From: a virus
Taxonomy: Duplodnaviria; Heunggongvirae; Uroviricota; Caudoviricetes
IMG/VR virus record: IMGVR_UViG_638341087_000020
Coordinates: 1-26,634 of that record
Reading direction: 5' to 3' (one strand)
DNA length: 26,634 nt
The notes beneath the pieces were generated by a model, which did not search any database, had not been told where the DNA came from, and was given only the letters and a program-made list of their open reading frames with translations. Of the stretch, positions 1 through 25,486 are shown piece by piece. Made by a program: the position numbers and the translations under genes. Numbering within the stretch: the stretch's first letter is position 1; every line of letters begins with the position of its first letter.

Positions 1-436
1 TCAAAACATGTAAAGCCTTGCAAGCCATTGCGAGGCCTTATGTGTCTCAGTTTTGTCCCACCTTGTATTACGACTTGCATAGCCAATGAAGATAAACGTG
101 ACGACAAACGGCGCAGCGGTCTTCTTTTCCTTTATACTTTCCCCACCCAGCATGCATACCTTCTACCATAACTGTAGTGAATGTCTGTTATGGGCGAAGA
201 GCGGAAAAAGCATACTGAGATCGCCCGGAATATGTCCCATACTTTTGATGAGCTAATTGTGTACCTCAAGGTGGATGTCGAGGCTTAACCTCGTAGTTAT
301 CATCTGCGCGTACCTTTTCAAACAGTTTGTTATCGCTAGCAAATAACATCTAAGGCTTCAGGGCCAATAGATAGATATTGACTAAGCTAAATAGTTTGAT
401 TACTCTTCGAAAATTGATTAAATAAATTTTAATTGG

Positions 437-1225
437 ATGGTAAACATGGAAAACAAAAAAAGTTGCGTTTATTGTAAAAGCACAACAAACTTAACTAAAG
501 AACATATTTTCCCTTCAGCAATAATTAAAAGTTTTAATGTTGAACTTTTATCGATGACTGATAAGAGTGACTACCATTTTAAAGGCGATCCAGTTATTGG
601 GGATGTATGCGCTGAGTGTAATAATGGAATACTGTCGCAACTAGATGCTGATTTCGTAACTTGTTTTAAAAATCAGATGCTAACACCTTTAAAACCCGGA
701 AATGAAATAACATTTGAATATGAATATGATTTATTATTACGTGAACTTCTAAAGATATCATATAATTCAGCGAGGGCATCAAATGGTGGTTATAATGCCA
801 GAGCCATTTTAGAAAAATACATACCATTCATAATCACTGGCAATAAAAACAAAAATGTAGATAGTATAATTCTTTCCCTTCTAATTGTAACTTCTGCAAA
901 TATGGTTAATCTGGAAACTGGTAAACATGAAGAGCCTTTAGAACCATATCTATTAAGAAGCGCATCGATTGGTGGTTTAAACCTCAACCCTAACAATTAT
1001 ATTGTTAGGATGGTTGCATTTAATAGCTTTTGGTTTTTCTTGTTAATTCCAAAGAGGCCAGTTACATCCAAAGTGAAAAAAGAATTTTGGGATGAATTTA
1101 AAAGAAAAAATCATCTGCATGGAGTTTTGTTAAAAAGAAACAACACGTCAATAAAGATCACAAAAGATAAAACGACATATTTGCATCCTGACTTAATAGA
1201 AAAGATGTGGCGAAAAATAAAGTAG
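437..1225 (+). CDS. HNH-nuclease-domain protein (N-terminal HNH motif, about 190-aa C-terminal region of unknown function); AT-rich cargo gene
   Basis: 262-aa ORF. Translation shows C10-x2-C13, E22-H23 and C58-x2-C61-N62, the arrangement of an HNH/His-Me finger nuclease. Visibly AT-rich, Lys/Asn/Ile-rich coding unlike neighbouring phage genes. GGATGG precedes the second ATG (446), which may be the true start. Confidence 0.6.
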   Translation: MVNMENKKSCVYCKSTTNLTKEHIFPSAIIKSFNVELLSMTDKSDYHFKGDPVIGDVCAECNNGILSQLDADFVTCFKNQMLTPLKPGNEITFEYEYDLLLRELLKISYNSARASNGGYNARAILEKYIPFIITGNKNKNVDSIILSLLIVTSANMVNLETGKHEEPLEPYLLRSASIGGLNLNPNNYIVRMVAFNSFWFFLLIPKRPVTSKVKKEFWDEFKRKNHLHGVLLKRNNTSIKITKDKTTYLHPDLIEKMWRKIK

Positions 1226-1578
1226 AACAAATTTTCCAGTTGACAATACCAAAAATAATTAATGGGGACTAGGTTAAATGACGCAGTGGAACAAACTCAC
1301 CAGAGAAGAAAATTAATGGTATTAATGTTCAATGTATTCATTACTGTAACCTAGCCCCTACTAATTTATTCACTATATTGCTGAGTATGTCCGCATCTGG
1401 CACATAGCAGCCCTAGAGATAGGAGCACACAGTCATAGATGGTCGGTGGGAGGTAGTGAAAATCCTCTCATACAATAAATACGTAAAATCGATAACGGCC
1501 GGAAATCATTCAATTCCCGCACTATCGAACGTTCACCAGCCAACCGCAGCACGTTCTTGCATACGACGTGCTACGGTT

Positions 1579-2133
1579 TCATTTATCTCCGACCGGAAAC
1601 TTCTTATACAGTGTCGATATACCAACATCATAGATGATCGCCACCTTCTGGCGAGGAACGCCTGATGCAATTAATCGCCCGGCCTGCGCCCATTGTTCTG
1701 GTGTAAGTTTGGGACGACGTCCACCAATTCGTCCCTGTGCGCGAGCAGCTTCCAGTCCAGCTTTTGTTCGTTCAACAATCAGTTCTCGTTCCATTTCAGC
1801 CAGGGCACCCATGACATGAAAAAAGAAACGGCCCATTGGGGTACTGGTATCAATACTGTCAGTCAGGCTTCGGAAATTCACGCCACGCTGGCGCAACTCT
1901 TCTATCAGCGTAACAAGATGCCGCATACTGCGCCCTAACCTGTCCAGCTTCCAGACAACCAGAGTGTCACCTGCCGATAATGTCCTGAGCAGTTTTTTCA
2001 GTCCGGGCCTTTCGGACTTCGTACCGCTTATCTTGTCTTCAAAAATCAGTTCACATCCTACACAGTTCAACGCATTACGTTGTAGATCGGTGTTCTGGTC
2101 ATTTGTTGATACGCGTACATAGCCAATAAGCAT
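1579..2133 (-). CDS. pin: Serine-recombinase DNA invertase, Pin/Gin/Hin family
   Basis: ORF-track frame trimmed to the internal ATG at 2133 (MLIGYVRVSTNDQ...), with AGGGAG 7 nt upstream. N-terminal catalytic motif YVRVST..Q and C-terminal helix-turn-helix (GVPRQKVAIIYDVGISTLYK) are typical of this family. Lies directly beside an invertible tail-fibre segment. Confidence 0.9.
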   Translation of the reverse strand: MLIGYVRVSTNDQNTDLQRNALNCVGCELIFEDKISGTKSERPGLKKLLRTLSAGDTLVVWKLDRLGRSMRHLVTLIEELRQRGVNFRSLTDSIDTSTPMGRFFFHVMGALAEMERELIVERTKAGLEAARAQGRIGGRRPKLTPEQWAQAGRLIASGVPRQKVAIIYDVGISTLYKKFPVGDK

Positions 2134-2187
2134 GGTGGATCTCCCTGACAAAAGCAGGAATGATGCCATTTGCTCGTTATTTCTGCA

Positions 2188-2213
2188 TTTTCATAAACGT
2201 TGGTTTGGGAGAA
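2188..2213. repeat. Invertase crossover site, left (pix/gix/hix-like 26-bp site)
   Basis: TTTTCATAAACGTTGGTTTGGGAGAA; its reverse complement matches the site at 4067-4092 at 21 of 26 positions. Imperfect dyad around a central TT, with AAAC..GGTTT half-sites as in hix/gix sites. Confidence 0.75.
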
Positions 2214-2711
2214 GGTTCGGCATTACCCGTTGGCGTGCCTGTTCCGTGGCCTTCCGCCACTCCGCCAACAGGCTGGCTGAAATGCAACGGTGCCGCTTTT
2301 TCTGCTGAAGAATACCCGGAACTGGCAAAGGCTTATCCGACAAATAAATTGCCTGATTTACGTGGTGAGTTTATTCGTGGCTGGGATGACGGGCGTGGAG
2401 TGGATAGCGGTCGTACTTTATTAACGAATCAAGAGCATGCAGTAATTTCTCATAATCATGGAATACCTACAAAAGTGGGGTCAGTTACTAATATCCCGTA
2501 TGGAATAGAACAGGTTATATCTGATGAAACCATTTTTTCATCAGCAAAAACAGTTGGTGTGGATTACTGGTCTAACAGTGAGCGAGTTTTTACTTATACC
2601 ACTGGTGGAAGAAATGGTGCTGAATCAGTGAGTTCACCTGATGCCTCCTCTTTAATTAAAGAAACCAGACCACGGAACCTGGCATTTGCGTATATCGTGA
2701 GGGCTGCATAA
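2202..2711 (+). CDS. Alternative tail-fibre C-terminal (receptor-binding) cassette, silent in the present orientation; no start of its own
   Basis: The frame is open from the left crossover site and reads ..NVGLGEGSALPVGVPVPWPSATPPTGW.., in the same phase relative to GGTTTGGGAGAA as the expressed fibre. Inversion would fuse it to the constant N-terminus. The ATG at 2160 in the ORF track is probably fortuitous. Confidence 0.6.
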   Translation, partial: GLGEGSALPVGVPVPWPSATPPTGWLKCNGAAFSAEEYPELAKAYPTNKLPDLRGEFIRGWDDGRGVDSGRTLLTNQEHAVISHNHGIPTKVGSVTNIPYGIEQVISDETIFSSAKTVGVDYWSNSERVFTYTTGGRNGAESVSSPDASSLIKETRPRNLAFAYIVRAA

Positions 2712-3313
2712 TGGATTACGCTGTATTAAATAACGAATTTATCGCCACCCAAGCAGGAAATATTACGGTTTATAACTATGATGGTGAAACACGGGAATAT
2801 ATTTTCACATCAACTGAATATCTTGCTGTGGGTGTCGGCATTCCGGCATGTTCCTGTTTAGATGCTCCTGGCTCATACAAAACTGGGTATGCAATCTGCC
2901 GTTCTGCAGATTTTAACTCATGGGAATATGTGCCAGACCATCGTGGTGAAATCGTCTTTAGCACAGAAACAGGAGAATCAAAAGAAATCAAAGCTCCGGG
3001 TGATTACCCTGAAAATACAACCACTATCGCCCCTTTATCTCCATACGATAAATGGGATGGTGAGAAATGGGTAACCGATACTGAGGCACAGCATAGCGCC
3101 GCAGTAGACGCGGCAGAAGCACAGCGCCAGTCACTGATTGATGCTGCAATGGCTTCCATCAGTCTGATTCAGCTGAAATTACAGGCCGGACGGAAACTGA
3201 CGCAGGCAGAAACAACCCAGCTTAACGCTGTGCTGGATTACATTGACGCGGTGACGGCAACAGATACCAGCACCGCGCCGAATGTCATCTGGCCTGAACT
3301 GCCGGAGGCGTAG
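2711..3313 (+). CDS. Tail-fibre assembly chaperone (Tfa), alternative cassette copy
   Basis: 200-aa ORF starting in a TAATG overlap with the preceding cassette. C-terminus (..LDYIDAVTATDTSTAPNVIWPELP) carries the conserved Tfa C-terminal motif also seen in the 3285-3725 copy. Confidence 0.7.
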   Translation: MDYAVLNNEFIATQAGNITVYNYDGETREYIFTSTEYLAVGVGIPACSCLDAPGSYKTGYAICRSADFNSWEYVPDHRGEIVFSTETGESKEIKAPGDYPENTTTIAPLSPYDKWDGEKWVTDTEAQHSAAVDAAEAQRQSLIDAAMASISLIQLKLQAGRKLTQAETTQLNAVLDYIDAVTATDTSTAPNVIWPELPEA

Positions 3314-3725
3314 GCCATTCAATATCTGGAGCACTGGAGGGATCAACCAGTTCCAGTGCGTCCAGATAATCCAGCCATAAATTATATTGCGCCAGTTCCT
3401 CACCTTTCAGACGACCAATAGCTGCTTTACCTGGCCATTGCCTGTTATTCATGTGCTCATTGGCAGTATCTATGCGCCGCTGACGCTCGTATTCTGCCAT
3501 CTTTATCAGTTCTTCAGGTGCCAGTGGCGGAATATCACTCCATACGGGATAACCATCATCACCCGCAATCCTCATTTTTCCCTCCGGTGGCTTCTGAAAT
3601 GCAGAAAAAGTTTCTTCATCAACCTCCACGCCTTTTTCTGGCCATAACCCCACGGATTCATAATGTAATTTCAAAGCCAACGGATAGAAGGCGTTAGTTT
3701 TTGCATCATAAATATATTTGTTCAT
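3285..3725 (-). CDS. Tail-fibre assembly chaperone (Tfa), expressed-orientation copy
   Basis: 146-aa ORF immediately downstream of the tail-fibre gene. C-terminal motif ..LDYLDALELVDPSSAPDIEWP. Converges on and overlaps the other Tfa copy by 29 bp. Confidence 0.8.
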   Translation of the reverse strand: MNKYIYDAKTNAFYPLALKLHYESVGLWPEKGVEVDEETFSAFQKPPEGKMRIAGDDGYPVWSDIPPLAPEELIKMAEYERQRRIDTANEHMNNRQWPGKAAIGRLKGEELAQYNLWLDYLDALELVDPSSAPDIEWPTPPAVQAR

Positions 3726-3727
3726 TT

Positions 3728-4369
3728 TTATTTCCCTATTGCAATCCAGTTAGCGCCAGCACCCGTTCCGCCAGTACGAGAACTCATTAAATAAAATGCA
3801 AGTAGTCCGCCTCCTGCCGGAGTTGTCGCAAAGGCAGGGCAATCTGTCGCACCGTTAATTGCACTGTCAAAAGACGTGGCAATACGATAACCAGATGTAA
3901 AAGGAATCGGGAAGTTAACAGTTGTTGGATAGCCGATTGGCCCTGCAATACTGACGCCAAACTGTATGATTGTACCATCCGGAAATTTCATCCAGCCTGG
4001 CCCCGACGTGAAGCTAGCCATATCCGAGATCTGATTTACCCCGGTTCCAACCTCCCGTTTTGCCGCTTCTCCCAAACCAAGGTTTTCGAGAGCCGTTTTC
4101 ACCGTGCCGTCCGATTTGATATCGCCAAACGGATTTTTGCGGCTTAACAGTAGCGCCCGAAGCGCGGTAAGCAACTGGTCGTGCCGCGCCTTCTCCAGGC
4201 TGGCACCGGATGCCTCCACCACGCTGCAAAGTTCCTCCTGCAACATGTCAAAGTAGTCATCATCCAGATCGGTGGCAGGCGTGCCTGTCTGGGGGTTACC
4301 ACGGGTAAAACCGTTCTTACCCGCGCCGAACTTATCCTTTTGCGCGGTTTTCGTGTCTATACGATGCAT
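3728..4369 (-). CDS. Tail-fibre protein (constant N-terminus plus currently selected variable C-terminus)
   Basis: 213-aa ORF with GGAG 6 nt upstream of the ATG. N-terminus [22 protein letters not shown].. resembles side-tail-fibre N-termini of Mu/P2/e14-type phages. The crossover site lies at about residues 93-101. Confidence 0.8.
4067..4092. repeat. Invertase crossover site, right (pix/gix/hix-like 26-bp site) inside the tail-fibre gene
   Basis: TTCTCCCAAACCAAGGTTTTCGAGAG, inverted relative to 2188-2213. Lies in the tail-fibre frame at the conserved ...[10 protein letters not shown]... junction. Confidence 0.75.
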
Positions 4370-4372
4370 GGA

Positions 4373-4957
4373 TTACTCCGGATATTTAAAAATTACGTAG
4401 GTATGCGATGGGCAGAGTTTGTTAAGCACGCACTCGATAACGGTGTCCCCCCAGATACGCAGTGCGGAATCGCAGGGATCGCCACATGTCATCCAGGTGG
4501 TGTTGGTGGCAGCTGGCATATTGACCTGCCAGTAATACCGCCATTCCGGCGCATTCACCGCGTCAGTACAGGCCGATGAGCAGGTGAACGTGCTTTTGTC
4601 GTATCGCGTGATGGTGGCATCTGGTCTGCCCAGGGCAGCAAGCTGTGCAAGATAAAAATCCTCGTTGATGCCACCCGCCAGGTTAACCTTCGCATCCAGC
4701 CGTTGCTGACGCTGGCGAAGGGTCTGTGTCCCTGCGGGAATACATTCATCCGGCAGGCCACACAGACGCTCCCAGCGATTTATCAGCTCGGTGGTGGTGC
4801 GCGGATCAAGCTCCCGCATCAGGGCATCCGCACGCTGATGAACGCGGGTTAATGAAGGTGCCGCACCGGCAATCGCCGGATCGCTGGCTGACCATGCAGG
4901 ACCGGGCGGCAACAGTGCCGATAACAGGCGGATGTAATCATCGTTTGTCACGTCCAT
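4373..4957 (-). CDS. Baseplate/tail protein, Mu gp48-like (YmfQ-like)
   Basis: 194-aa ORF in a tightly packed baseplate cluster between the J-like gene and the tail fibre. Family assignment from remembered similarity. Confidence 0.65.
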
Positions 4958-6006
4958 GAAATCGTCCCCAGAACCGCCAGCTCATTTTTCGCAATGGAGA
5001 TATTGTCCACCGGTGCAAGCAACTGATGGCTGTATTCCCCGTTCGCACCGGAAATCGCCTCACTGATACGCGATACCTTCAGTTCTCCCTGCGGATAACC
5101 ATCACGCAGCAGGAACGAACGCAACTCCGCGGTAATGGCAGCCCGTATTTCTGGTGTGTCCGGCGTCACGCGGATATGAAAATCCACCGTATGTGCCACC
5201 GGCCTGAATACATACAAATCAGAGCCTGCCACCGGGGCCAGTGGCTCAATGTGTTGTCTTGCCGCCGTTTCCGTTGATTCTTCCGGAATGGGATTAATCA
5301 GGTCACTGCTGGCAATCATCACACCGACAGTTCCCGTTCCCATCCAGTGACGGTATGTCCATGCGCGGGTAATGCCGGACACTTCTTTAGCCCAGACGAC
5401 ATAGTCCCCGTCAGCCCCGCCCTGAGGCGTCCAGTAATACCGCTCAATGACGCGGGCGCGCCACGTTTCCAGCTCTTCAGTATCAAATCCACCTGTCAGG
5501 GTATCTGCCACGCCGGAAGACGGCAGACCATTAACCGGCGTGACCAGGATTAATGACGTACCGTCGTCAGCGTTACCGACCGCGCCTGCACTTGAGCAGG
5601 CGATCGGCACGCGCAGGACACCACCGGAGCTGGTTGCATCGGCAGTTGCCGTGTACTGAACCAGGTCATCGCGCTGAATAACACTCCCGGCAGTCACCTT
5701 CAGGCCATCGCTGACACCTTCCCAGCGCATATACCCGCTGGCAGCCGTGGCCCCCTTGCGCGGACACCGTTTCATCGCAGCATGTCGCGCCAGCCAGGAC
5801 TCATCGCACAGGTCAGGCAGCATGTTCATTGCCAGATAATCGATGTACCCGTAAACCGTATGCAGCGCCGCCGCATACACCTTTGCCCGCACGTCTTCAT
5901 CCATGCGCCGGAGCGTGTCGCTGACGTCCAGCCTGGCGAATAAATCGTTACGGAGCATACTGATATTTTCTGCCAGCGTCGGGCGCTGAAATTCACTGTC
6001 CGCCAT
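4948..6006 (-). CDS. Baseplate J-like protein (Mu gp47-like)
   Basis: 352-aa ORF. Size and position (after the gp45/gp46 homologues, before the gp48-like gene) fit baseplate J. Confidence 0.75.
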
Positions 6007-6418
6007 GCGTTATCGCACTCCACAGATCATCAAAAGAAATCATTACCGGTCCGTCACGACGCCAGAGAGTGATACTGTTACCCAGTTCATTAATCCCGGT
6101 GCGGCGGATATCCAGATCAATACGGGACACCACGCCGTCATCAATCATCCATTGCAGGCATTCGCGGATATACCCCCTTACTGTCTGCACCAGCTGATTG
6201 GTCAGTTTGCTGCGCTGAAGCAGCCACAGTCGGGAGCCGTAACGGTCATTCTGTACCGCAGGCCAGGTATCCCCCCACCATCCCATCGGGACGTCGGCAT
6301 TGTCATCAGGCTCCGCCCGCCGCCAGGTGAACAGGGAAATCACCACAGCGCGGGTCAGCGGCTCCAGCGGTGCGCTGGCGCAGGTGCGTTTACCGTTCAC
6401 CGTCAGCCACAGTTCCAT
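5993..6418 (-). CDS. Baseplate protein, Mu gp46-like
   Basis: About 141-aa ORF. Tandem ATGs overlap the stop of the upstream gene; GGAGG upstream favours the second ATG (6418). Confidence 0.6.
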   Translation of the reverse strand: MELWLTVNGKRTCASAPLEPLTRAVVISLFTWRRAEPDDNADVPMGWWGDTWPAVQNDRYGSRLWLLQRSKLTNQLVQTVRGYIRECLQWMIDDGVVSRIDLDIRRTGINELGNSITLWRRDGPVMISFDDLWSAITHGGQ

Positions 6419-6966
6419 CATGCCTCCATCGCTTTATCAGGTTTGTCGGTGTTACTGCCCTGACCGTTCTCTCTGTGACGATGCCCGTTATAGGCAAGCC
6501 GCATCGCTGACATGGTGGTGCCGCCGGAGTCGCACAGGTCTTTCACCTGTCCGGTCACTTCCAGGTCCATTTCAAAACGTGCTCTGGGCGCATTGCGAAA
6601 CGTGATCGTTTTACCTGCACCGTCCACCACGATACCCGCCCGGGTCAGCGTCACGGACTGCCCCTGATCGTCATAGACAGCCACCTCACCCGTCTGCAGC
6701 CCTTTCAGGCGGTAGCGCCGGTCCGACACCGTAACAACCACCGCATGAGAACGGTCGCCATCCGGAAACAACACCACCGCTTCCGCACCGCTGTTTGCCC
6801 TTGCGGTAAAACCGTAGGGTTCAAGATGTTCAACCCCGGCTTTGGGTTCACCGGCAATCAGGGACACATCCACGGTCTGACATTTCGTGGCGGCACTGAT
6901 GCTTTTCACCACGGCCCGCCCAATCAGGCCGAGGAGTTGTCGCTGCATGGCTTCAATCGTCCTCAT
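6418..6966 (-). CDS. Baseplate assembly/spike protein V (Mu gp45-like)
   Basis: 182-aa ORF; position and size fit the gpV spike family. Confidence 0.7.
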   Translation of the reverse strand: MRTIEAMQRQLLGLIGRAVVKSISAATKCQTVDVSLIAGEPKAGVEHLEPYGFTARANSGAEAVVLFPDGDRSHAVVVTVSDRRYRLKGLQTGEVAVYDDQGQSVTLTRAGIVVDGAGKTITFRNAPRARFEMDLEVTGQVKDLCDSGGTTMSAMRLAYNGHRHRENGQGSNTDKPDKAMEA

Positions 6967-8045
6967 CAGAACGGGTCCTCCTGTACTCTGGCTTTTTTCT
7001 TTTTCCGCGCGCCGGGGGCTTCGGGTTCAGGCAGATAAGCATCAGGTGGGCCGACACGGATTTCCGTCAGGGTGCCGTTCTGGTCCTGAGTAAACGTGAC
7101 TTCCGAGACAAGCAGTTCGGTATTGTCGAAACCACAGACCGGATCGAAGACAATCACCCGCTGGTTGGGCTGCCACAGCGTACCGTTACCCTGTCGCCAG
7201 CCCTGCACCACATAGGTGGTTTCATCCGTCCGCGCCGCCCGTTGTCGGGCTTCAAAGTCAGCACGCGCAATACAGCCTGCCCCCGTAGCCTGCCCTGTCT
7301 GCCTGATATACATCGGACGGTAACGGGCAATAAATGCGTCCTCTGTGCGGGCCCGCAGCGCAGTTGTGGTGGCCTCACCGAAATCATCGTCGTTTCCGGC
7401 ACGCTGCCCCGCCACCTGGTAAACAGAAAACCGCTCCCGGATACTCTTCTCCGTATCGCAGGAAAGGATGTTTTCCCCGAGTACCAGCGCGGTATGTGCC
7501 CGCGTTGAGCCAATACCGCCAATCACCAGCCTGCCGTGCGGGTCGTCATAAGCCAGCGCCTGCTGCTGACCGAGTATTTTGTTAATCACCTCGATCACCG
7601 TTTCACCGTGATCAGGCTGGACATCAGGAATAACACCCGACGGCGCACCGCTGTTCACCACCTCAATGCCGAAGGGCGCAGCAAGCGCCTGCGCAATCTG
7701 TACCAGTGATCGTCCGTTAAACTGTGTCGGTTCGGCTGCACAATCAATCAGGTCAGCGGTCAGACTGCGTCCGGCAATACCGGTGCTGACCGAACGGGCA
7801 TCGTAACGAACGGGCGTCGCCTCCACCCAGCCGGTGATCACCAGCTCATCACCAATCAGCACCTCCACTTTTGAACCGTTTTTAATGCGCGGCTGAAGCG
7901 TGGTGATACCCTCATCACCCGGCCACTGGCGGGTGATCTCCACACTGAAATCCCGCGCCAGTCGTTCAACACCGGCACCGATGCGCACCGATGTCCAGCC
8001 ATTCCACTCCCGGCCATTTACCCGTAGCGTGACATTGTCGTTCAT
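6966..8045 (-). CDS. Baseplate hub/tail protein (Mu gp44/P-like)
   Basis: 359-aa ORF between the DNA-circulation-like and gpV-like genes. Confidence 0.65.
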   Translation of the reverse strand: MNDNVTLRVNGREWNGWTSVRIGAGVERLARDFSVEITRQWPGDEGITTLQPRIKNGSKVEVLIGDELVITGWVEATPVRYDARSVSTGIAGRSLTADLIDCAAEPTQFNGRSLVQIAQALAAPFGIEVVNSGAPSGVIPDVQPDHGETVIEVINKILGQQQALAYDDPHGRLVIGGIGSTRAHTALVLGENILSCDTEKSIRERFSVYQVAGQRAGNDDDFGEATTTALRARTEDAFIARYRPMYIRQTGQATGAGCIARADFEARQRAARTDETTYVVQGWRQGNGTLWQPNQRVIVFDPVCGFDNTELLVSEVTFTQDQNGTLTEIRVGPPDAYLPEPEAPGARKKKKARVQEDPF

Positions 8046-9370
8046 TGCACTGGCACCTTCAGAGGGATCACCGGCACAAAGCCGGGATGCGTAATGGCAT
8101 TACGCCGGATAATGTCCGCATCACGCGCCGCGTTATCAAACCAGGTCGCCGCCAGCACCAGCGCGGGTAAAACCTCATCCGGTGTGCGCTGAATGATCCG
8201 TGCAGACTGTTCAAGGCGCGTGTTGATATCCGCATTCAGATCTGCTTTCACCCGGCGCAGTGCCAGAAACAGCGCATCACTGGTTGTACGGGACAACTCC
8301 TTATCAATTGCCGTATTCAGTGTGTCGCGAATGTCAGTCAGTTCTTCCCACGTTGGCAGGTCAACCGTGTTTTTCACCGCCGGTGCATTGTTCAGTGCCG
8401 GATGCGTGACGGAAGGCCAGCCAGTGCTCTGCGCAGGTGTTGTTGACTGCCCCACTGCGGCATTCTGCATCACCGCGGAAGTTGTTGGCGCAGGCAATCG
8501 GGTGACGGCATACGCCGCTTCGCTGATTGCGGTCGTACGAAGGGTGCTGGCAACCTCGTTACGCTGATGCGTCGCCGTGGCGGTGGTTTTACTGTCCGTT
8601 TTCCAGACGCCGCGCGGTTGCAGATCGCTGCCGAGGCTGACACCGGAAAGCGTTTTGATCATGGTGACCAGGTCGCTGGCGTTACCATAAAGGCGTTTCC
8701 CGGTACGCCACATTTTCTGCACCTGCTCAACGAAATTTTTGCCTGACGATGGTGGCGGCAGAAGTACCGAGATATCCCCCTGCAACAGCCTGGCAGCATC
8801 CGATACGGCAGAATCCACCACTTTCATCGCATCAGAAACATACCCAAGCATTGTGCTGGCATTACCGACGACGTCGTTCTGCACAAAATCCGCCACGCCA
8901 TCGATACTGAAACCGCTGAAGCTGTCACTGATGCAGTCATCCAGTGCAGAACAGGATGACATCAGCGTCTGCGCCGTCGCCGCACCTGATGTGGGGTAAG
9001 AGAGTTCTCCCGCTTCGACAAACTTCAGGTCAAAGCGGACAATACGCCCTTCACTCTTCGATGTGCTGACCCGAACCTCTCCGTCAACACAGACTTTCAG
9101 CTCACCGTAAGTCGGATGGACAAGCGTGCCGGGACCGGGTTTATTCAGCGCGTCAATCAGGCGATCGCGCTGGTCAAAGCAGTCATCTCCCACCACATAA
9201 GCCGTGATGGACGGGCGGAAAGTGATTTTCCCCAGGTCTTCGGTATAGGGTTTGTCGCGGTTCGGGTATTCGTGCGTTTCCACACGACGACCGATTCCCG
9301 CACTTTCTTCTTCAACCTTAAACGGCACACCGCGAAATGACGCGTCCTGAAGTCTGTCTTTCCACGTCAT
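8042..9370 (-). CDS. Mu gp43-like protein (DNA circulation protein N family)
   Basis: ORF-track frame trimmed to the ATG at 9370 (MTWKDRLQDASFRGVPF..), which has GGAG 5 nt upstream. The upstream in-frame extension begins with a non-ATG codon and overlaps a terminator hairpin. Confidence 0.65.
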   Translation of the reverse strand: MTWKDRLQDASFRGVPFKVEEESAGIGRRVETHEYPNRDKPYTEDLGKITFRPSITAYVVGDDCFDQRDRLIDALNKPGPGTLVHPTYGELKVCVDGEVRVSTSKSEGRIVRFDLKFVEAGELSYPTSGAATAQTLMSSCSALDDCISDSFSGFSIDGVADFVQNDVVGNASTMLGYVSDAMKVVDSAVSDAARLLQGDISVLLPPPSSGKNFVEQVQKMWRTGKRLYGNASDLVTMIKTLSGVSLGSDLQPRGVWKTDSKTTATATHQRNEVASTLRTTAISEAAYAVTRLPAPTTSAVMQNAAVGQSTTPAQSTGWPSVTHPALNNAPAVKNTVDLPTWEELTDIRDTLNTAIDKELSRTTSDALFLALRRVKADLNADINTRLEQSARIIQRTPDEVLPALVLAATWFDNAARDADIIRRNAITHPGFVPVIPLKVPVQ

Positions 9371-21345: not shown

Positions 21346-21696
21346 TCACTTAAGCCGTTCACGGGCCGTCTTCGCCTTATGACACGGCCAGCACAGACTC
21401 TGCAGATTACTGTCAGCATCAGTGCCGCCATGTGCTTTAGGGATGATGTGGTCAACGGTTTTCGCTTCACGCGCCACACCAGCACGCAGACATAACAGAC
21501 ACAGGCCTTTGTCACGCTTCAGGACACGCACCCGGATACCGTCCCACTTCGAACCATAACCACGCTGATGGCGGGACTGGCCCGGCTTGTATTGCTTCCA
21601 GCCTTCACTTTTGTGGCTTTCGCAATAGCCTGACGGGTCAGTCGTGGTATGGCGGCAACCGCGGACGCGGCAGGCTTTTGGTGTTCGTGGTGGCAT
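21346..21696 (-). CDS. HNH endonuclease (packaging-associated, HK97 gp74-like)
   Basis: 116-aa ORF with Cys-rich zinc motifs and an HNH core (..DHIIPKAHGGTDADSNLQSLCWPCHKAKT..), immediately upstream of the TerS/TerL genes. Confidence 0.85.
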   Translation of the reverse strand: MPPRTPKACRVRGCRHTTTDPSGYCESHKSEGWKQYKPGQSRHQRGYGSKWDGIRVRVLKRDKGLCLLCLRAGVAREAKTVDHIIPKAHGGTDADSNLQSLCWPCHKAKTARERLK

Positions 21697-21837: not shown

Positions 21838-22233
21838 ATGAGTAAAGACAAAAATGCACCTTCTCTGCCCTCTACAGGGATTTATATTGAAAAGGGTTTT
21901 GGAAATCAGCTTTCTAACATAACATCGGTAGGATATGACGTAGGCATTCGCTTCGATGAAGCTTACAATAATAAGTTTTCTTCAGTTCAAGTTATCAGCT
22001 TAGACGCGCTAACTGTGTTAGAACAAACTAAAATTCAATTATTAAACTTGAACATTGATGAAAAATTAAAAAATGAAATTAATAACAAACTTGACGAAAT
22101 TAAAACGGCTCCATCTAAAGAGAGCGCCTCAAACTCATACATTAAATTAATGTCATCACTATCAGATCATGTCACTGTTCTTACGCCACTCTGGCCGCAT
22201 TTATGTACATTAGCTGGTAGCCTCATTGCGTAA
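21838..22233 (+). CDS. Hypothetical protein; opposite-strand AT-rich moron
   Basis: 131-aa ORF on the plus strand inside an otherwise minus-strand late operon. Visibly AT-rich with GGTGGA upstream of the ATG; no recognisable motif. Confidence 0.5.
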   Translation: MSKDKNAPSLPSTGIYIEKGFGNQLSNITSVGYDVGIRFDEAYNNKFSSVQVISLDALTVLEQTKIQLLNLNIDEKLKNEINNKLDEIKTAPSKESASNSYIKLMSSLSDHVTVLTPLWPHLCTLAGSLIA

Positions 22234-24943: not shown

Positions 24944-25486
24944 TCACACTGATTGGTTAGGTAAAACACTCCTAAGCACCATTGCGCAACCACCTCGTTC
25001 GTAATCAGCAATGTACTCAAAACCACTTTCAGTATAGTATCTTATTGCCCCATCAACTGGACTAACTAAAGCTATCGAATCAATAGATTCACCCTGAAGG
25101 TTCAGAAATCGTGCATATGCAGAGAAGCAATCCAAAACGATACCAAGCATCTGATGGTCTAGGTCTTCATGTGCATCATTACGTTTTTCCATCCAGCAAA
25201 TATGCACCGCATTTTTCGGCTTACAGTAACACCCAAATGCAAATCCAATAGGCTCCCCACGATAATAAACAACTAGTTTTATCGGGTGTTCTTCCATCAT
25301 ATCCATAAACACTCGCGACTTTAGTCCGGGATCCCACCGCAGTTTATTGTTCGCCTTGAGGAACTCCATATCTTTTAGTACCAGCTCGTCGGCATATACG
25401 AGCCCTAACGACTTATGAGGGAAGCGCCCTTTTAAATACTCTGCAACATTTTTAAATACTGCTGTTTGGAAGGCTTGAAACATCAT
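24944..25486 (-). CDS. Hypothetical protein, possibly GNAT-fold (acyl-CoA N-acyltransferase-like)
   Basis: 180-aa ORF in AT-rich DNA between the Q-like gene and the lysis cassette. C-terminal ..PVDGAIRYYTESGFEYI.. resembles the GNAT motif-B signature; the upstream Q-x-x-G-x-V segment is only a weak motif-A match. Weak RBS. Confidence 0.45.
   Translation of the reverse strand: MMFQAFQTAVFKNVAEYLKGRFPHKSLGLVYADELVLKDMEFLKANNKLRWDPGLKSRVFMDMMEEHPIKLVVYYRGEPIGFAFGCYCKPKNAVHICWMEKRNDAHEDLDHQMLGIVLDCFSAYARFLNLQGESIDSIALVSPVDGAIRYYTESGFEYIADYERGGCAMVLRSVLPNQSV

Follow-up and report, generated by a model that had tools for sequence, protein, structure and literature searches.

The window, by which we mean the whole 26,634-nucleotide stretch of DNA that was analysed, carries a complete and co-oriented late operon on its minus strand, in which a Q antiterminator (~26450) is followed by lysis, head, tail and baseplate genes and, at the far end, by a tail fibre gene. 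The constant N-terminus of this fibre lies outside, and two alternative C-termini lie inside, a segment bracketed by two short inverted sites (Table 1). The two C-termini face each other and each is followed by a chaperone gene of its own, so arranged that tfa and tfa' overlap convergently by 29 nt, and an invertase gene (pin) is situated just beyond the segment.

Table 1. Features of the fibre locus and their positions in the window.
Feature	Position	Strand	Description
pin, serine DNA invertase	1579-2133	-	184 aa; Ser9 nucleophile; C-terminal HTH; GGGAG Shine-Dalgarno at 2141-2145
Candidate recombinational enhancer	2049-2112		two Fis-type 15-mers in the 5' end of pin: GTATCAACAAATGAC (2098-2112) and GTGTAGGATGTGAAC (2049-2063)
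pin-proximal crossover site	2188-2213		TTTTCATAAACG-TT-GGTTTGGGAGAA; core TT at 2200-2201; same as the site that separates stfE' from pinE in K-12 e14 (L006, 6606-6631)
Invertible segment	2200-4080		1879 bp between cores; L090, L092, L093 and L095 have it inverted with the flanks identical
Sv', silent alternative fibre C-terminus	2214-2711	+	phage tail collar domain (Pfam Collar, 1e-15)
tfa', tail fibre assembly chaperone for Sv'	2711-3313	+	200 aa; silent in the present orientation; Pfam Caudo_TAP 2.4e-32; tfaE in relatives
tfa, tail fibre assembly chaperone for the expressed Sv	3285-3725	-	146 aa; Pfam Caudo_TAP 9.5e-32
Sv, currently expressed fibre C-terminus	3728-4066	-	gp53-like C-terminal domain (Pfam Gp53-like_C, 4.4e-10)
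Distal crossover site, within the fibre gene	4067-4092		TTCTCCCAAACC-AA-GGTTTTCGAGAG; core AA at 4079-4080; encodes ALENLGLGE; same as the K-12 e14 site inside stfP (L006, 4779-4804)
Sc, constant fibre N-terminal part	4093-4369	-	residues 1 to ~92, plus site-encoded 93-101; ends the minus-strand late operon
Mu gp48-like baseplate gene	4373-4957	-	Phage_Mu_Gp48 6.9e-27; directly upstream of Sc

This is the architecture of the Mu G, P1 C and e14 P segments to which the initial annotation had likened the locus, with crossover sites, Sc outside, two Sv-plus-chaperone cassettes inside and a Gin/Pin-family invertase outside, and the stretch of about 1.9 kb that it placed between the sites measures 1879 bp from core to core. 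Scans of positions 1200-4600 returned three sigma-70 promoter-like sites, compared with 5.1 in shuffled sequences, none of them sensibly placed for pin, and a chance-level count of intrinsic terminators, none sensibly placed for the end of the operon.

The invertase, its crossover sites and a candidate enhancer

The pin product combines a Resolvase domain (Pfam, 2.6e-52) with an HTH_7 domain (4.6e-13), is identical to K-12 PinE at 173 of 184 positions (94%) and matches the Mu Gin structures 3UJ3 and 4M6F over its full length (1.9e-93); within MLIGYVRVSTNDQ of the product, Ser9 aligns to Gin 4M6F. The list of open reading frames also offers a 196-aa invertase with a start at 2169, the 184-aa start (MLIGYVRVS) being the one common to PinE and Gin. 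A GGGAG motif is found 7 nt upstream of the ATG, in agreement with the earlier description of a serine invertase with its own ribosome-binding site just outside the segment, and the centre of the crossover site is ~67 bp from the invertase start.

The two inverted 26-bp sites that had been reported are present with their letters exact and agree at 21 of 26 positions after reverse complementing. Their central dinucleotides (TT and AA) are identical with the sites in inverted register, the half-sites agree mutually at 8-9 of 12 positions around the 2-bp core, and a repeat finder returned a 20-nt inverted repeat (95%) at 2195-2214 and 4066-4085. By chance, a 21/26 match is expected ~1.4 times in 26.6 kb and 0.018 times in a 3.1-kb region, while the expectation for a 19/20 match is ~0.02 across the window. 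A degenerate pattern derived from both K-12 e14 sites is found at exactly these two places with no mismatches, compared with no matches in 100 shuffles, and no third crossover site was found in the 26.6 kb even when three mismatches were allowed. Alignment to known sites, as the initial annotation had advised, reveals base-for-base identity with both sites of the K-12 e14 P segment and agreement at 18 of 26 positions with Mu gix. Multiple-inversion systems have more than two crossover sites and adopt several permutations, and shufflons use the tyrosine recombinase Rci; such a system (p15B Min, shufflons) was rejected for this locus on the basis of just two sites in 26.6 kb and a serine-type recombinase.

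A Fis enhancer, the fourth part required and one on which the initial annotation was silent, probably lies in the 5' end of pin (Table 1), as suggested by patterns of codon use among its homologues. A scan of pin, pinE and gin for Fis sites (G-N13-C, KNNYRNNWNNYRNNM) gave many equal scores and no consistent 48-bp pair, and an analysis of synonymous constraint took the place of this degenerate consensus. Among 80 distinct pin homologues the synonymous entropy is 0.51-0.63 at nucleotides 1-45 and 61-105 of pin, compared with ~0.85-0.9 elsewhere, and third-codon-position conservation is 0.88-0.97 at codons 9-12 and 0.66-0.95 at codons 25-31, the two patches of suppressed synonymous change together spanning 64 bp (pin nucleotides 22-85). 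The candidate Fis-type 15-mers have centres 49 bp apart, and 95.5 bp separate the proximal one from the left site, centre to centre. As a sequence signature, this geometry agrees with that of the hin enhancer, which is 65 bp long, has a Fis site at either end and lies ~100 bp from hixL (PMC3798978); it is the geometry, as the text of that source gives it, and not the sequence that is compared.

Fusion products and the proposed mechanism

As had been annotated, the distal site lies inside the fibre gene, where a 213-aa frame (3728-4369, minus strand) reads A93-L-E-N-L-G-L-G-E101 through it. The plus-strand frame that follows the left site is likewise in the expected phase, but the description of this frame as start-less does not hold, since an incidental ORF of 183 aa (129 aa after inversion) runs into Sv' from in-frame ATG codons at 2160 and 2163. 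When the segment is flipped in silico at the core, Sc and Sv' form a single uninterrupted ORF of 266 aa, which is the in-frame fusion that had been foreseen, and this product is identical at 266 of 266 residues to the annotated fibre of an E. coli genome (AMSHJX01, L004). Sc is the same in the 213-aa and 266-aa fibre products, and the structural matches of Sv' are to a short tail fibre (9CUY, 2.8e-16) and to T4 gp37 (2XGF, 3.2e-15).

The mechanism of DNA inversion switches has been textbook knowledge since the 1980s. Applied to this locus, Pin dimers would bind both 26-bp sites, and host Fis on the enhancer inside pin would bring the Pin-bound sites together in an invertasome, with cutting at the central TT/AA (2200-2201, 4079-4080), rotation and religation then flipping 1879 bp. 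The fixed part of the fibre gene comprises only the first ~100 codons (Sc, 4369-4067). In the present state these are joined to the gp53-like C-terminal domain to give a 213-aa fibre, followed by the 146-aa chaperone, and in the flipped state to the tail-collar domain to give a 266-aa fibre, followed by the 200-aa chaperone. The two fibre states have different C-terminal domains, so that a lysogen population would release virions of two receptor specificities. Switches of this family depend on host Fis and on DNA supercoiling; for the switch in the window the Fis dependence and the switching rate are inferred, and an orientation-dependent host range is predicted from the differing receptor-binding domains.

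Orientation of the segment in public genomes

Loci of the prophage were located via an exact-protein index, and both orientations occur in nature: among the ten matches listed, six are in the present orientation (L089, L094, L096 and L098 among them) and four are inverted. The locus L089 is 100% identical to positions 1-8725 of the window and has the present orientation. L093, which has the same host flank as L089, matches the window at 100% over 1-2214 and at 99.975% over 4066-7995 and has the interval 2195-4085 inverted, and L092 is similar, with the same prophage and flanks and the same inverted interval. The inversion breakpoints (2195-2214 and 4066-4085) coincide with the 20-bp core common to both sites, and opposite orientations are found between assemblies that have 0-1 substitutions in ~6 kb of flanks. 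The earlier expectation that an element with intact parts is probably still switching is thereby strengthened, near-identical public assemblies having both orientations at one and the same place in the chromosome, and breakpoints that fall within the sites.

Most of these loci are short-read draft assemblies, in which assemblers can be misled by inverted repeats, and draft contigs with pin homologues often break off inside the crossover site. It is nonetheless extremely improbable that the differences in orientation are assembly artefacts, or that they result from RecA-mediated recombination at short inverted repeats and not from catalysis by Pin. Both arrangements are present in complete (closed) E. 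coli genomes (pin-site-Sv'-tfa' in 397 and tfa'-Sv'-site-Sc-ymfQ in 450), the breakpoints fall at canonical serine-invertase sites that adjoin an invertase, and the shared repeat is just 20 bp, a length too short for efficient RecA recombination. For the exact element, no record among 5,426 complete E. coli genomes spans at least 80% of positions 1400-4500, because the Sv and tfa cassette (3455-4015) is rare and occurs in 2 genomes only.

Some relatives are clearly frozen, with pin truncated in L004 and split into 115 and 65 aa in L095, and the window might by analogy hold a relic whose parts look intact, in a strain where inversion has ceased, the orientations in the databases then recording ancient events. 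This is very unlikely in view of the 0-1 substitutions that separate the flanks of oppositely oriented segments, a full-length Pin with the catalytic Ser9 present, and sites identical to the experimentally active sites of e14 (PMC4272514). Clonal cultures of K-12 contain the e14 P segment in both orientations (PMC4272514), and its inversion is carried out by PinE (PMC12529663). Some or all of the flipping could be the work of invertases that act in trans from other prophages (PMC12529663).

We consider it highly probable that the prophage in the window, an SfV/e14-like myovirus of E. coli, has an active site-specific inversion switch of the Pin type (Hin/Gin/Cin/Pin family) where its late operon ends. 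The switch is a working one of the e14 Pin and Mu Gin type, in which the tip of the tail fibre is exchanged, and it is real but ordinary.

The pin-side reading frame and relation to known systems

The ATG codons on the pin side of the segment bear on a different role, in which the switch mainly serves the host and not the phage: inversion would change which truncated or chimeric Stf the lysogen produces, a protein that masks outer-membrane receptors and blocks superinfecting phages. When the P segment of e14 inverts, StfE2 is reported to arise with its start at the pin-proximal ATG, and to block T2 adsorption (PMC12529663). The window, L001, L002, L004, L006 and L008 have the same or almost the same 54-nt leader with ATG ATG, and gene callers report a 129-aa gp53-like ORF beside pin in inverted loci. 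We nevertheless regard this role as unlikely here. Of 50 distinct loci in which the site can be recognised, only 15 have an open frame with an ATG in phase, and the AGGA-to-ATG spacing is poor (0-3 nt). The hexamer ATGCCA persists at loci whose frame is interrupted by stops (~12 of 18 are open, about the neutral expectation), and its conservation therefore looks like a DNA-level signal and not a coding one. The presence of a complete late operon, moreover, means that the classical virion role applies. Coding selection on the leader that carries the in-frame ATG, ahead of the silent cassette, was not supported across the 50 distinct loci.

The host-serving and virion roles of the switch are not mutually exclusive. 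It is conceivable, if distinctly unlikely, that the pin-side cassette is not silent and that an N-terminally truncated receptor-binding protein is made from the conserved ATG at 2160/2163, in which case each flip would toggle a receptor-masking anti-phage phenotype together with the virion host range; the protein would be of the collar type now and gp53-like after inversion. If true, what the 2025 report on StfE2/PinQ describes for a cryptic remnant would hold for an intact prophage as well.

As an exchanger of virion fibre tips, the switch in the window shares with the e14 P segment both 26-bp sites (identical), the invertase (94% identical), a nearly identical Sc and the gene order ymfQ, stf (Sc and Sv), tfa, tfa' (inverted), stf' (inverted), pin and cargo gene. 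The segment is 1879 bp long in the window compared with 1797 bp in e14, blastn finds no counterpart in e14 for the expressed Sv and tfa cassette of the window (3455-4056), and Sv' is different in part (2442-2659). Furthermore, e14, situated at icd, is a remnant of 15 kb and defective, whereas the prophage in the window has a complete late operon and lies by pao/yagP-type genes. The cargo gene of the window is an HNH-like ORF, where e14 has mcrA; a PADLOC scan of this ORF and two further unassigned ones gave no match.

The mechanism is also that of Mu G/Gin (and P1 C/Cin), with Sc outside, Sv-U and Sv'-U' inside and the invertase just outside, its start likewise ~67 bp from the centre of the site, and in addition to the full-length match of the invertase to the Gin structures, the baseplate genes are Mu-like. 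In contrast, the gix sites and those of the window disagree at 8 of 26 positions, the window pin shares only 152 of the 5' 220 nt of gin, and Mu has a G segment of ~3 kb and much longer fibres (~500 aa). The Hin/H segment of Salmonella has in common with the window the invertase family, the 26-bp site and, as far as the candidate enhancer goes, the geometry of a 65-bp Fis enhancer within the 5' end of the recombinase gene (PMC3798978), but Hin lies inside its segment and flips a promoter for flagellin genes, whereas the invertase in the window lies outside and coding cassettes are swapped.

The discovery value of the locus is small, the mechanism being long known and the sites being those of K-12 e14, and only the cassette combination, carried on an apparently complete SfV/e14-like late operon, is new. 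It does provide a clean positive control, in which a complete inversion switch was read correctly from raw sequence and both states of the prophage are found in public assemblies. The apparently complete late operon, unlike defective e14, also leaves the effect of the switch on virion host range open to testing.

The phages SfV, SfII, SfIV and SfI have the same virion module, and the fibre in the window is ~64% identical over its full length to the short tail fibre of SfV, SfII and SfIV; these phages differ from the window in having a fixed short tail fibre, with no invertase, second site or alternative cassette. In E. coli 181.1 this very Sc-Sv-tfa recurs at 99.9% identity, with the 26-bp site present as part of the coding sequence, and relative to this strain the window contains a 1.68-kb insertion (pin, site, Sv' and tfa'). 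Set against this non-invertible sister prophage, the window shows that a fixed fibre turns switchable on gaining a single 1.68-kb module (pin, one site and one cassette), which suffices because the coding sequence of the fibre already includes the second site.

The crossover sites and the fibre fusion

Two 26-bp crossover sites in inverted orientation, one beside the serine invertase gene pin and one inside the fibre gene, are identical at 21 of 26 positions after reverse complementing, as the initial annotation had reported with exact positions and sequences. Each has the 12-2-12 layout of serine-invertase sites, and the central TT and AA are identical in the inverted register; religation by serine invertases requires such identical central dinucleotides. 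An inverted 21/26 match is not rare in 26.6 kb (ca. 1.4 expected) but is rare in the 3.1-kb region (0.018 expected); the 20-nt core common to both sites, found independently by a repeat finder (2195-2214 and 4066-4085, 95%), is a 19/20 match with 0.02 expected window-wide. Furthermore, a pattern derived from the two K-12 e14 sites matches both window sites exactly (0 mismatches; 0 matches in 100 shuffles), and scanning the window with it yielded no third crossover site.

Features of the invertible segment and of the adjacent invertase gene
Feature	Position	Strand	Sequence or domain	Remark
pin, 184-aa serine invertase	2133..1579	minus	Resolvase + HTH_7 domains	
G-N13-C 15-mer, pin	2049-2063		GTGTAGGATGTGAAC	coincides with patch of low synonymous variation
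G-N13-C 15-mer, pin	2098-2112		GTATCAACAAATGAC	coincides with patch of low synonymous variation
Left crossover site	2188-2213		TTTTCATAAACGTTGGTTTGGGAGAA	core TT at 2200-2201
Sv' tail-collar domain frame	2214-2711	plus		silent
tfa' chaperone, 200 aa	2711-3313	plus	Caudo_TAP	silent cassette
tfa chaperone, 146 aa	3725..3285	minus	Caudo_TAP	comes after expressed fibre
Expressed fibre, 213 aa	4369..3728	minus	Gp53-like_C at C-terminal end	
Right crossover site	4067-4092		TTCTCCCAAACCAAGGTTTTCGAGAG	core AA at 4079-4080

The plus-strand Sv'/tfa' cassette faces the expressed minus-strand fibre and its chaperone. Judged from gene orientation, transcription would enter the invertible segment from the side of the constant fibre N-terminus (Sc), and the minus-strand cassette alone would be expressed. 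After in-silico inversion of 2200-4080 the fibre reads without interruption as 266 aa in place of 213 aa; both proteins have residues 1-101 in common and differ from the end of ..ALENLGLGE onwards. E. coli AMSHJX01 has an annotated tail fibre protein (L004 5070-5870) identical to the predicted one at 266/266 positions, so that the in-frame fusion initially proposed exists as an annotated protein. The silent frame had also been described as start-less, which is incorrect, since ATG codons occur at 2160 and 2163 and begin an ORF of 183 aa, called 'phage tail protein' by annotation pipelines.

Pin matches the Mu Gin crystal structures over its full length, Ser9 nucleophile included, and shares 173 of 184 residues with K-12 PinE; its MLIGY start is preceded by GGGAG at 7 nt, and the 196-aa ORF of the mechanical ORF list is pin with an upstream in-frame extension. 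Together with crossover sites that are base-for-base identical to those of e14, this bears out the original interpretation as a Mu G/e14-type switch. The element is a real member of the e14 Pin/Mu Gin class, which is already known, making the finding an ordinary one; what is new is its combination of cassettes, carried by a prophage that appears intact. Compared with e14 of K-12 MG1655 (gene order ymfQ, stfP, tfaP, tfaE (inverted), stfE' (inverted), pinE, mcrA), which is a 15-kb remnant, the window holds a full late operon, and its invertible segment measures 1879 bp versus 1797 bp (PMC12529663). The expressed Sv-tfa cassette (3455-4056) has no nucleotide match in e14, part of Sv' (2442-2659) also differs, and beyond pin an HNH-like ORF stands in place of mcrA.

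Both orientations in deposited genomes

A public-assembly look-up of the exact 146-aa chaperone returned ten places. One locus (L089) is 100% identical to window 1-8725, and three others (L094, L096, L098) have the window orientation with 1-2 bases different, whereas L093 matches at 100% over 1-2214 and 99.975% over 4066-7995 with 2195-4085 inverted (99.8%), and the same holds for L092. Loci of both orientations share a host flank of XdhC/PaoD-type and molybdopterin oxidoreductase genes, at the breakpoints of the inverted loci the alignments overlap by 20 bp, the core of the sites, and gene calling in these loci gives the collar fibre of 266 aa and, beside pin, a gp53-like fragment of 129 aa. 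The occurrence of the same prophage, at the same host flank, in both orientations supports the earlier view that the segment is probably still switching. Frozen relatives do exist, with pin truncated in L004 (3266-3610) or split in L095 (4026-4579); these are decayed switches, both locked with the collar-type fibre expressed. That the present segment is likewise a relic that no longer inverts is, however, contradicted by the opposite states of near-identical isolates.

Among 5,426 complete E. coli genomes, pin-site-Sv'-tfa' is present in the window arrangement in 397 and the inverted junction tfa'-Sv'-site-Sc-ymfQ (synthetic query) in 450, the best match to the latter being 98.9% over 1501/1501 bases in a single piece. 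The orientation differences could alternatively be ascribed to assembly artefacts or RecA recombination, but closed genomes show both arrangements and the shared repeat is merely 20 bp long, which contradicts this explanation.

Assemblers break contigs at such sites when reads hold both orientations. The 83 pin homologue genes analysed comprise 80 loci across Enterobacterales, the window and the loci compared before; 18 of them have a contig end 63-112 nt before their start codon, most such contigs beginning inside the crossover site. In 22 of 43 index blocks the chaperone is carried solely on contigs of <2 kb, approximately the segment size; both observations suggest, but do not prove, that the segments switch. 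Contig ends inside crossover sites can serve as a bioinformatic sign of segments that actively invert. Draft contigs of this kind span many Enterobacterales genera (L014, L015, L017, L023, L033, L037, L040, L042, L044, L055, L070, L073), and some invertase genes stand alone on 0.7-1.2-kb contigs. For e14, clonal MG1655 cultures contain both orientations (PMC4272514), and the segment is inverted by PinE, PinQ and PinR and found inverted in 33% of 562 deposited genomes (PMC12529663).

Candidate control signals in and upstream of pin

Fis-consensus scanning was uninformative for enhancer sites, and the enhancer was sought instead by synonymous variation along pin in 80 distinct homologues. Relative synonymous entropy drops to 0.51-0.55 over nt 1-45 and to 0.59-0.63 over nt 61-105, compared with 0.85-0.9 in the remainder of the gene, and third positions are near-invariant at codons 9-12 and 25-31. 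The centres of the two 15-mers are 49 bp apart (span 64 bp), the nearer one lying 95.5 bp from the left-site centre, a geometry that fits the hin enhancer, which is 65 bp long, has a Fis site at each end and lies ~100 bp from hixL (PMC3798978). The 5' patches fit a candidate recombinational enhancer, with Fis binding predicted from sequence.

Some 21-29 nt upstream of the pin start, the pin strand carries the motif TGGCAT(C/G)AT (TGGCATCAT, window 2157-2165; ATGCCA opposite), kept from e14 to Mu and several other genera. Because it is retained even in loci whose opposite-strand frame is closed, a role as a DNA signal is more likely than one in coding; it resembles an extended -10 element and may be such a promoter element for pin, in which case the adjacent crossover site could allow autoregulation. 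This persistence also speaks against a host-defence role, in which chimeric Stf proteins mask receptors (PMC12529663), as does the lack of detectable coding selection on the in-frame ATG leader; an open in-frame ATG occurs in only 15 of the 50 distinct loci whose site is recognisable. Such a role may nevertheless apply, and is compatible with the classical virion role.

Origin of the module and genomic setting

The prophage of E. coli 181.1 (L003) carries the same Sc-Sv-tfa at 99.9% identity without an invertase, the 26-bp site being present as coding sequence in its fibre gene. Relative to it, the window has an extra 1.68 kb (1580-3264: pin, second site, Sv', tfa'), bounded by the chaperone gene on one side and, on the other, by a conserved ~108-nt element with a hairpin (AGCACGT..ACGTGCT), located just past the pin stop (1474-1580; L003 4217-4324; L004 1726-1833). 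Because this element directly follows the chaperone gene in 181.1, pin, one site, Sv' and tfa' behave as a single inserted module, the gain of which makes a fixed fibre switchable. Over pin-Sv'-tfa', the window is 98.8-99.6% identical to strain 90-1 (L001), whose expressed cassette differs. At a mosaic joint (3264-3454), the left side is 98.8% identical to 90-1 and the right 97.7% to 181.1; since the joint falls where the two convergent chaperone genes have a conserved 3' end in common, reassortment of cassettes by homologous recombination is suggested.

The position beside pin appears to be a hotspot of variable cargo, with nuclease or defence-like genes. In the window it holds a 262-aa ORF (437-1225, plus strand) whose HNH_5 match is weak and below threshold (23.9 bits versus a cutoff of 27.5) and which had no match in a PADLOC scan; 90-1 has a GIY-YIG protein, L090, L091, L095 and L097 have GIY-YIG, Dcm-type methylase and EcoRII-like genes, and in L008 an AAA ATPase pair is inserted between the 262-aa-type ORF and pin.

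The minus strand holds all genes from 26450 down to 3285, which read as a complete late region with Q-like antiterminator, holin/endolysin/spanin, HNH, small and large terminase, portal, protease and major head protein, followed by connectors, sheath, tube, tape measure and Mu-type baseplate genes (gp44-48 homologues); the fibre shares ~64% identity with its short-tail-fibre counterpart in phages SfV, SfII, SfIV and SfI. A 131-aa ORF (21838-22233, plus strand) between the lysis and packaging modules, opposite to the late operon direction, had no match in PHROG and PADLOC searches, and a 180-aa ORF (24944-25486, minus strand) matches solely phrog_11949, of unknown function; both could be moron-type genes. 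The HNH endonuclease gene (21346-21696, minus strand) immediately precedes the small terminase gene, a neighbourhood usual in HK97-like cos-packaging phages.
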